Origin: Escherichia phage ECO111 5-P
DNA length: 64,000 nt
Sequence record: OR844765
Direction: 5' to 3' (one strand)
Below the pieces are notes generated by a model. It was not told the origin of the DNA. It did no database searches and was given only the letters and a program-made list of their open reading frames with translations. Shown in pieces: positions 52,383-53,342 of the stretch. Position 1 is the first letter of the stretch. Each line of letters begins with the position of its first letter. Made by a program: the position numbers and the translations under genes.

Positions 52383-53342
52383 ATGATGTTAGTTATTGGT
52401 TCTCGTGCACTTCACTATCACGGTCTTATTGATTCTAGCGCTATCAAAAATAGCGATTGGGACTTTATTGCGGACCAAGGTTCTTGGAATGCATTCAAAA
52501 AACAAATGATGGGTGTATATGTTCACCAAGATAACCCTGATGTTCAAGTTTTCAAATGCTTACATAATGGACGCGAAACTCATTTTGAAGCATATATTGT
52601 TCCGGCAATCACTAATGTCCGTGAATTAGTCGGTGAACTCACTCCTGAAGATTTCACGTCTTCTTATGACCTTTTAAAATACGCCAAGAAAAATTTGACT
52701 AAAGACCGTTTGAACGGGTTTTACTGGGCAACTCCTGAGATATGTCTTGCAATTAAGATGTCTCATCGTTTCAAGAAAAATAATCCATTCTTTTTAAAGA
52801 CTATGAACCATATTCAGTATCTTCGTGGTAAAGGTGTTACACTGAACGATGAACTTACTGAAATTATGCTGAAACGCCAGAAAGAAACCTTGAACTATGC
52901 TCACCCGGTTCTTGACACTTCTAAAAGTGCGTTCTTTAAAGATGACATCTATACATATGACCACGATACTATTCATGAAGCCATTGCACTAACAGACCGT
53001 CCAGCGTATACATTTTATATGAAAGACGGTTTTGAAGTCATGACCTCACGCGAGAAGTTCGAATCGTTACCCGAAATGATTAAACTGGCTGGTGTATACG
53101 AAGAATCATGTGTACTAGCATTAGAACGTTCTCAAATTCCTAATGACTTTAAAATTAACCCTGAAGCCAGTTTCATGATGGCATTAGAAAAGGTCTGTAC
53201 AAGCATCACCTCTGGTTGGTTCCGTGAGTACGCATACGAGAACTATTATGAAGTAGTGGCTATGTATCATAAGCTCGGCAAAAATGATTACATCAAACGG
53301 TTTAAAGAAAATTTTCATATGGTGAAACCATTTAAGGATTGA
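52383..53342 (+). CDS. Hypothetical protein with nucleotidyltransferase-like N-terminal motif
   Basis: 319 aa; LVIGSRALHYHGL…NSDWDFIAD resembles the hG[GS]…DxD head motif of pol-beta/CCA-type nucleotidyltransferases; largest unassigned ORF in the accessory block. Confidence 0.5.
   Translation: MMLVIGSRALHYHGLIDSSAIKNSDWDFIADQGSWNAFKKQMMGVYVHQDNPDVQVFKCLHNGRETHFEAYIVPAITNVRELVGELTPEDFTSSYDLLKYAKKNLTKDRLNGFYWATPEICLAIKMSHRFKKNNPFFLKTMNHIQYLRGKGVTLNDELTEIMLKRQKETLNYAHPVLDTSKSAFFKDDIYTYDHDTIHEAIALTDRPAYTFYMKDGFEVMTSREKFESLPEMIKLAGVYEESCVLALERSQIPNDFKINPEASFMMALEKVCTSITSGWFREYAYENYYEVVAMYHKLGKNDYIKRFKENFHMVKPFKD

Follow-up and report, generated by a model that had tools for sequence, protein, structure and literature searches.

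What is the product of the 319-aa open reading frame at 52383..53342 (+ strand, ATG start) in the genome of Escherichia phage ECO111 5-P (sequence record OR844765), and with what does it act? The frame lies in a stretch of 64,000 nt, the whole of which was analysed and is referred to here as the window. A first-pass annotation had noted a nucleotidyltransferase-like head motif in the encoded protein, had proposed a class II CCA-adding enzyme or another tRNA 3'-end activity and, alternatively, a nucleotide-signal synthase, and had read an apparently overlapping downstream gene as the sign of a mobile cassette. The coordinates that it gave for the frame proved exact. The most informative feature of the locus, a set of three small tail ORFs upstream, was absent from it.

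The window belongs to a Mosigvirus and its DNA is 96-97% identical to that of phage RB69, in which RB69ORF134c is the homolog of the 319-aa frame. The gene order in RB69 is e.3/ORF135c-139c, then ORF134c, then ORF133c/ORF132c/e.2/nudE/e. T4 has no homolog of the gene: tblastn against the T4 e-region gave noise only and a comparison with its ORFs (e.x) found none that matches, as the first-pass annotation had supposed. The whole block at 51.26-55.05 kb of the window has no T4 counterpart between e.3/e.4 and e.2. At its upstream edge (51158..51168), ~250 bp of the RB69 e.3 region (L001:3159-3408) are missing, and e.3 appears to be deleted or truncated in the window. The gene itself and the part of the block downstream of it comprise the following features:

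52383..52718, + strand: N-lobe of the predicted nucleotidyltransferase (NTase), aa 1-112, DUF7277, with strand 1, G6-S7, a helix, strand 2 with D25xD27, and E69
52719..53342, + strand: C-lobe of the predicted NTase, aa 113-319, DUF7275, all-helical, with the K125 helix, conserved residues and the motif KVCTSITSGWFRE
53334..53997, + strand: AP2/HNH-like homing-type insertion of 664 bp relative to RB69, probable coding sequence 53345..53995 (216 aa)
54056..54361: predicted membrane protein of 101 aa, phrog_9798, in the block absent from T4
54363..55049: 228-aa protein, phrog_1843, containing GYHHDD, no Pfam match, in the block absent from T4

The 319-aa protein matched two Pfam families at scores far above the cut-off of 27, DUF7277 over aa 2-101 (E 3.7e-27, 95.3 bits) and DUF7275 over aa 120-305 (E 8.5e-77, 257.7 bits), and in PHROGs it matched phrog_2141 (E 3.4e-148). 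All three families are annotated without function. Searches of NCBIfam and PADLOC, and phmmer and profile searches of the PDB, gave no match to the protein. No sequence link to known NTase families was seen among 69 members of the family at Pfam E values up to 10, with isolated weak matches to DUF6036 and Polbeta in one member each. A literature search found no mention of DUF7275, DUF7277 or RB69ORF134c; the NTase of the RB69 arabinosyl-DNA pathway (PMC13326640) is gp52:53, a different gene from ORF134c.

The structure of the protein was modelled with AlphaFold2 from an alignment of 69 homologs, giving a mean pLDDT of 93 and a pTM of 0.87. The order of elements in the N-lobe of the model is strand 2-5, G6-S7, helix 7-12, strand 26-31 with D25xD27, and strand 64-73 with E69. 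This is the signature of Pol-beta NTases, in which hG[GS] lies at the junction of strand 1 and the following helix and DxD lies on strand 2, while the third acidic residue of the superfamily corresponds to E69 on the later strand. Across 86 related loci, G6, S7, D27 and K125 were invariant wherever the residue was present; position 25 was D in 84 and E in 2, and position 69, among the aligned loci, was E in 78 and D in 7. G6, S7, D25, D27 and K125 were also kept in four remote homologs, position 69 being unalignable in short-form homologs. The alignments thus indicate that the N-terminal head motif is conserved well beyond chance. Because the Pol-beta order of secondary structure is present and G6, S7, D25, D27, E69 and K125 are conserved, the reading of the head motif as that of an NTase is correct, and the product of 52383..53342 is predicted, from alignment and model, to be very probably an active enzyme of the Pol-beta superfamily.

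The C-lobe is conserved as well. Residues H128, H194, D195, H198, E240, E241, E248, R249 and K270 are kept across the superfamily (K270 is replaced by R in one remote homolog), and the long form of the enzyme, to which the window protein belongs, has in addition R129, R165, H174, C272, S277 and R281, within the motif KVCTSITSGWFRE. No convincing relative of the C-lobe was found in the PDB, and its identification as an HD domain was considered and rejected. In the model, it begins with the K125 helix that is common to MenT-type C-lobes, and the remainder is a novel all-helical domain, DUF7275.

The closest architecture to that of the modelled two-lobed NTase is the MenT / ANT(2'') / LnuA group. 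The bi-lobed MenT fold is shared with the MenT/AbiEii enzymes (MenT1, 8an4; TglT/MenT3, 6j7n; MenT4, 6y56), but the C-lobe of the window family is unrelated to theirs past its first helices. None of the 69 members of the window family matched the Pfam family DUF1814. That family has four motifs, including a DUF1814-specific motif IV (PMC10435456); equivalents of motifs I-III are present in the window NTase (D25/D27, E69 and K125), whereas the motif IV Asp was not found. Compared with ANT(2'')-Ia (4xje) and LnuA (4wh5), the window NTase is ~130-160 residues longer, has a large conserved C-lobe and shows no sequence-family match, and it sits in a phage context with associated protein partners. 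Class II CCA-adding enzymes and poly(A) polymerases share the Pol-beta head with G-S and DxD, and some DUF7275 genes lie in RNA-repair clusters. However, the PolyA_pol head (PF01743) was unmatched at E up to 10 in the 69 members, and the neck, body and tail tRNA-binding domains, accompanied by an HD domain in some bacterial enzymes, were not found, so that the proposed CCA-adding enzyme falls away. A CD-NTase or cGAS-like synthase was likewise rejected, and the suggested nucleotide-signal synthase found no support: there was no CD-NTase or PADLOC match and no defence operon, and the Z score to a cGAS-like receptor was 4.5.

The DUF7277+DUF7275 enzyme is essentially restricted to viruses, mainly large ones. 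The long form comprises 2116 homolog clusters in a large protein database and was matched by 733 phage records, from T4-like, Aeromonas, Acinetobacter, rV5-like, Pseudomonas, jumbo and other phages. Among the genomes of 185,579 bacterial and archaeal species there were only 5 matches. Each lies on a contig from a metagenome-assembled genome, and those long contigs that were examined have genes of phage type (NAMPT, DNA ligase and a tRNA/tmRNA cluster). A short form of ~250-265 aa, with at least 1028 proteins or clusters, occurs in actinophages, Vibrio phage VH7D, roseophage DSS3_VP1 and prophage-like regions. In BFVD, the giant viruses Sylvanvirus and Satyrvirus have DUF7275 proteins of 508 and 571 aa, and split forms were seen in which DUF7277 stands alone (117 aa, Pseudomonas phage KIL2) or DUF7275 stands alone (168 aa, Stenotrophomonas phage IME13); the BFVD entries for the giant-virus and split forms are A0A3G5AJ90, A0A3G5AE53, A0A142IE91 and J7I4W1.

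The gene immediately downstream of the NTase gene had been described as an overlapping AP2-domain homing-endonuclease-like gene. Its homing type was borne out. It matched PHROG 374, 'HNH endonuclease', with E 1.9e-59 over profile positions 189-411 of 617 only, and it lies on the insertion at 53334..53997, which replaces 19 bp of RB69. The AP2 assignment was weaker, with the Pfam matches to AP2 (E 0.11) and CapR (E 0.037) both sub-threshold; no HNH Pfam match was obtained and no HNH catalytic motif was recognised. An overlap with the NTase gene exists only if translation starts at the TTG at 53339. Homologs begin MGRP..., corresponding to the ATG at 53345, 2 nt past the NTase stop codon, and with this likely start there is no true overlap. 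Among 50,697 phage records, no near-identical copy of the gene's DNA was found, the only two DNA matches both falling on the 53 bp flank downstream of the insertion. Protein homologs with 57-65% identity lie within ~12 nt of the NTase stop codon in vB_EcoM_005, VR26, the rV5-like nepoznato and Aeromonas CC2, and VR7 also carries a homolog. The insertion is thus sporadic and occupies a fixed site next to a conserved gene, as expected of a homing endonuclease, and since homologs occur at the same position in very different phages, their placement suggests a homing family that targets the 3' flank of the NTase gene. The base composition gave no foreign signature for the insertion. The mobile cassette of the earlier proposal therefore holds for the AP2/HNH-like gene, as a 664-bp insertion relative to RB69, and not for the NTase gene: the insertion is separate from the NTase module, of which the NTase gene is the flank and not the cargo.

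We clustered the neighbouring ORFs of the 86 related loci. Only one broadly conserved neighbour family was obtained, consisting of small upstream proteins of ~60-145 aa encoded on the same strand as the NTase. These proteins, here called type A, end in an almost invariant sequence, G-x-W-x-S-S-S-x-x-C-stop. In the window, the genuine tail ORFs are confined to 51258..52052, upstream of the NTase gene:

51170..51198, + strand: sigma-70/T4-early-like promoter match TTTACG-17-TATAAT from a consensus scan, in the gap 5' of the first tail-protein gene
51258..51563, + strand: type-A partner 1, 101 aa, pI 4.8, with a YGSGRTYYP motif, ends ...GAWVSSSALC; phrog_899, family HMM E 4.8e-23
51573..51845, + strand: type-A partner 2, 90 aa, pI 5.0, with a YGMGGTY motif, ends ...GGWVASSHTC; family HMM E 1.8e-18
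51855..52052, + strand: type-A partner 3, 65 aa, pI 4.2, ends ...QGWVSSSYSC; phrog_4882, family HMM E 1.2e-8
52058..52086, + strand: second early-promoter-like match, TTTACA-17-TATAGT with extended TG, a consensus match only
52103..52354, + strand: 83-aa ORF (phrog_3723) separating the partner genes from the NTase gene; its family is confined to one sequence group, the T4-like phages

Partners 2 and 3 are homologs of RB69ORF137c and RB69ORF136c, respectively. A 67-aa segment at 62820..63023 also gave a weak match to the partner HMM (E 0.003); it has no tail and the match is probably spurious. Promoter-like matches were overall no more numerous in the consensus scan than expected from shuffled sequence; for the match at 51170..51198 only the intergenic position is suggestive. 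The families of the 83-aa, 101-aa (54056..54361) and 228-aa proteins were found in only 1-2 sequence groups each, from T4-like enterobacterial phages, with the 228-aa family also present in Aeromonas phages. NAMPT, DNA ligases, metallophosphatase, RNR and Sir2 were also considered as conserved neighbours and set aside, being inconsistent between groups.

The linkage between the NTase and the type-A proteins is close. At least one ORF with the tail motif was present in 81 of the 86 loci and in 19 of the 22 groups at 60% identity, and a stricter filter requiring an ATG start, with near-variants of the tail allowed, left a type-A partner in ~79 of the 86. The NTase strand holds 185 of the 195 tail-motif matches, and 181 of these 185 end 5' of the NTase start codon, some of the ORFs abutting or overlapping it. 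The number of copies in a locus ranges from 1 to 4. When the tail was removed and an HMM was made from the N-terminal parts alone, it retrieved 105 ORFs; the strict tail is present in 96 of them, and near-variants in most of the remaining nine. In a HMMER scan of 1.84 billion representative proteins, 450 type-A clusters were detected; among the 150 of these that were listed, the matches were 65-153 aa long, and the tail W-x-[SAP]-S-S-x-x-C ended 135 of 146 cluster representatives, with nine more having one residue beyond the Cys. Searching in the reverse direction, we found a DUF7277+DUF7275 gene directly downstream of the genes for three out of three database partner proteins. Type-A proteins are acidic (median pI 4.4, median charge -8) and belong to no Pfam family. 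Their bodies have diverged freely between paralogs, whereas the tail is near-constant.

The short-form NTases are accompanied by a different family. Small acidic proteins (median pI 4.4), here called type B, flank the short-form gene in 11 of the 11 loci examined (L093-L096, L101-L103 and L105-L108; examples at L093:4399-4734, L094:3220-3600 and L107:3785-4808), in 1-4 adjacent copies. Their motif is GGEGxG ... G-[YWF]-Y-x-S-[WYF]-[DE]-G ... EVxP, and the Ser within [YWF]-Y-x-S was invariant in 21 of 21 sequences. Type B also has no Pfam family, and a comparison of types A and B by hhalign gave a probability of 0.2%, indicating that the two are unrelated. In the loci examined, the partner types are strictly exclusive, type A occurring with the long form only and type B with the short form only. 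The pairing of an NTase with an array of small acidic proteins, in which a single invariant Ser stands three positions past an aromatic residue, is thus a general property of the superfamily.

Collectively, these results suggest that the NTase is not a CCA-adding enzyme for tRNA but half of a viral two-part system that is so far undescribed. The joint reading that we put forward as the best explanation, tentatively and at somewhat less than even confidence, is that the NTase works with the adjacent small acidic proteins and nucleotidylylates their Ser. The module would consist of one two-lobed NTase and an array of one to four small acidic paralogs, three in the window. D25, D27 and E69 of the N-lobe would be the metal-binding carboxylates, and the first helix of the C-lobe would contribute K125. 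The type-A tail may dock into the NTase cleft or onto the C-lobe, whereupon the hydroxyl of the invariant Ser, three residues after the Trp, would accept NMP from an NTP, a protein O-nucleotidylylation. One enzyme could in this way modify several diverged clients that have a common recognition tail, and the modified partners might have their role in RNA repair or counter-defence, the setting in which the module is often found. Such an arrangement of many clients and one enzyme fits better than a one-to-one inhibitor because the bodies are diverged, the tail is constant and several paralogs accompany each enzyme. There is precedent for the type of reaction. In HEPN/MNT (type VII) systems, the MNT antitoxin AMPylates a Tyr of the protein with which it is paired. 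MNT antitoxins and the holo-ACP synthases CitX/MdcG are both Pol-beta-type enzymes that transfer a nucleotide-derived group onto a Tyr or Ser hydroxyl of a small partner encoded alongside. They offer a functional analogy for the proposed Ser nucleotidylylation.

The loci that have an enzyme and no partner set a limit on this reading. Phage CC31 (Karamvirus, NC_014662.1) encodes an intact NTase, CC31p140, which is 64% identical to the window NTase and has all of the conserved residues, and no type-A or type-B partner was found anywhere in its 165.5-kb genome (the regions concerned are NC_014662.1 67713..68630 and 69066..70111). Upstream of the CC31 NTase gene, the ORF CC31p141 has GGWNWKKC in its interior, which might be the remnant of a tail. 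A nearby partner is missing in about seven further loci. The partners can therefore not be the sole substrate of the enzyme. Covariation gave no support for a contact between the two either, as R129, R165, H174, C272, S277 and R281 are kept even in partner-less loci. A covariation of C243 or C272 of the enzyme with the Cys of the tail was also considered and rejected, with C243 variable in the tail branch and C272 kept in tailless loci.

A core function that does not depend on partners would account for CC31 and for the residues that are conserved throughout the superfamily, and here an NTase acting on the ends of RNA or tRNA comes into consideration. Such an enzyme would add nucleotides to a 3'-OH, in repair or re-tailing after attack by a host nuclease or in the manner of MenT, and the small proteins would regulate it, confer specificity as subunits or mimic RNA as pseudo-substrates. 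We regard this as possible but hold it with low confidence. The top structural matches of the window NTase are MenT1, MenT3 and MenT4, which extend tRNA acceptor stems (PMC10435456), and in several independent lineages the gene sits close to genes for RNA repair or tRNAs. The metagenomic phage contig L107:1-6483 has a dense cluster for RNA and tRNA repair, in which the DUF7275 NTase and three type-B genes are accompanied by an RNA ligase, PNKP, peptidyl-tRNA hydrolase 2 (PTH2), RlaP and a CCA-adding enzyme of the PolyA_pol type; this genuine PolyA_pol gene lies 1.7 kb from the DUF7275 gene. Other neighbourhoods contain RlaP and Metallophos (L092), Metallophos and Rnl2 (DSS3_VP1), PNK (BillNye) or an RNA ligase (L101 and L103, the latter also with a LigT-like gene and YqeY), and in jumbo and Aeromonas phages Rnl1 and/or PNK lie 3.5-6 kb upstream of the NTase gene. 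Clusters of tRNA genes adjoin the NTase gene in CC31, where an 8-tRNA cluster is ~430 nt away, in OneUp and in about six other loci. The tRNA genes and RNA ligase 2 to which the first-pass annotation had appealed are indeed in the window, tRNA-Met/tRNA-Arg at 47155..47334 and the ligase (RNA_ligase and T4_Rnl2_C) at 9456..10454, 5 kb and 42 kb, respectively, from the NTase gene. However, genes for tRNAs or RNA repair are missing from the 6 kb around the NTase gene in most loci, and the association, a modest enrichment seen in several lineages, is suggestive only. The enzyme is not basic (pI 6.5), the family has no DUF1814/AbiEii or PolyA_pol sequence signal, and the presence of several diverged paralogs with one invariant Ser motif would be left unexplained. 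Of the tRNA 3'-end activity proposed at the outset, the CCA-adding form is thus lost, and a broader function at RNA or tRNA ends survives as the main rival to the nucleotidylylation of partner proteins.

One short-form NTase, from a prophage-like region of Mycolicibacterium (L102:9366-9605), has on its downstream side, at less than 5 kb, an Acb2/Tad1-hairpin anti-defence gene together with a dGTP diphosphohydrolase-like gene, Metallophos and a dual-specificity phosphatase, which suggests an accessory or counter-defence neighbourhood.

The partners could instead be inhibitors. The pair would then resemble a toxin-antitoxin module, with a toxic MenT/AbiEii-like NTase used, for example, in host shut-off, and with small proteins from interchangeable families as its cognate inhibitors, comparable to MenA. 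MenA1 is a 68-aa antitoxin (PMC10435456). The common MenT fold, the small ORFs that adjoin the NTase gene on one side or the other, frequently with an overlap, and the swapping of two unrelated partner families between branches of the enzyme are all consistent with this arrangement. We nevertheless consider it unlikely, because the family is nearly missing from bacterial genomes (the 5 matches in 185,579 species noted above), whereas classical toxin-antitoxin modules are abundant in chromosomes and plasmids. In addition, up to four diverged partners per enzyme would be unusual for an antitoxin, CC31 has the enzyme without a partner, and there were no PADLOC matches. Where MenT is chromosomal the window family is viral, its partner families are unrelated to MenA, and with respect to toxicity, tRNA extension and antitoxin only the gene arrangement, with adjacent small ORFs, is alike. 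An NTase that O-nucleotidylylates a small molecule, in the way that ANT(2'') and LnuA act on antibiotics, is very unlikely, whether the acceptor is a metabolite, an anti-phage compound resembling an antibiotic or a signalling nucleotide of immunity, given that there is no sequence relationship to resistance NTase families, that the near-universal partner proteins would be left unexplained and that the metabolic neighbour genes differ between lineages.

Returning to the nucleotidylylation of the partners by the NTase, a more far-reaching version may be considered, which we put forward as a long shot. DUF7275 enzymes and their small acidic partners could form an unrecognised viral protein-modification system that places NMP on the invariant Ser (W-x-x-S in type A, [YWF]-Y-x-S in type B). 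In type A, the NMP could then serve as a leaving group, giving a dehydroalanine that is attacked by the C-terminal Cys; the spacing from S(-4) to C(-1) is that of lanthionine/AviCys rings. The products would be ring-closed or nucleotide-tagged effector proteins that large phages might deploy early in infection, for example against tRNA-targeting host defences.

The family is large and spread over T4-like, rV5-like and jumbo phages, actinophages and giant viruses, and so far it has been annotated only as domains of unknown function. What is new is that an intact NTase of MenT/ANT-like architecture is genetically locked to arrays of small acidic proteins, each with one invariant motif that contains a Ser, which makes it a testable system. 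Should the partners prove to be clients, they would represent viral protein nucleotidylylation of a new kind; should they instead regulate an NTase of RNA ends, phage RNA repair and counter-defence would gain a component. In both cases, several early genes now listed as 'hypothetical' in RB69 and other model phages would acquire a function.
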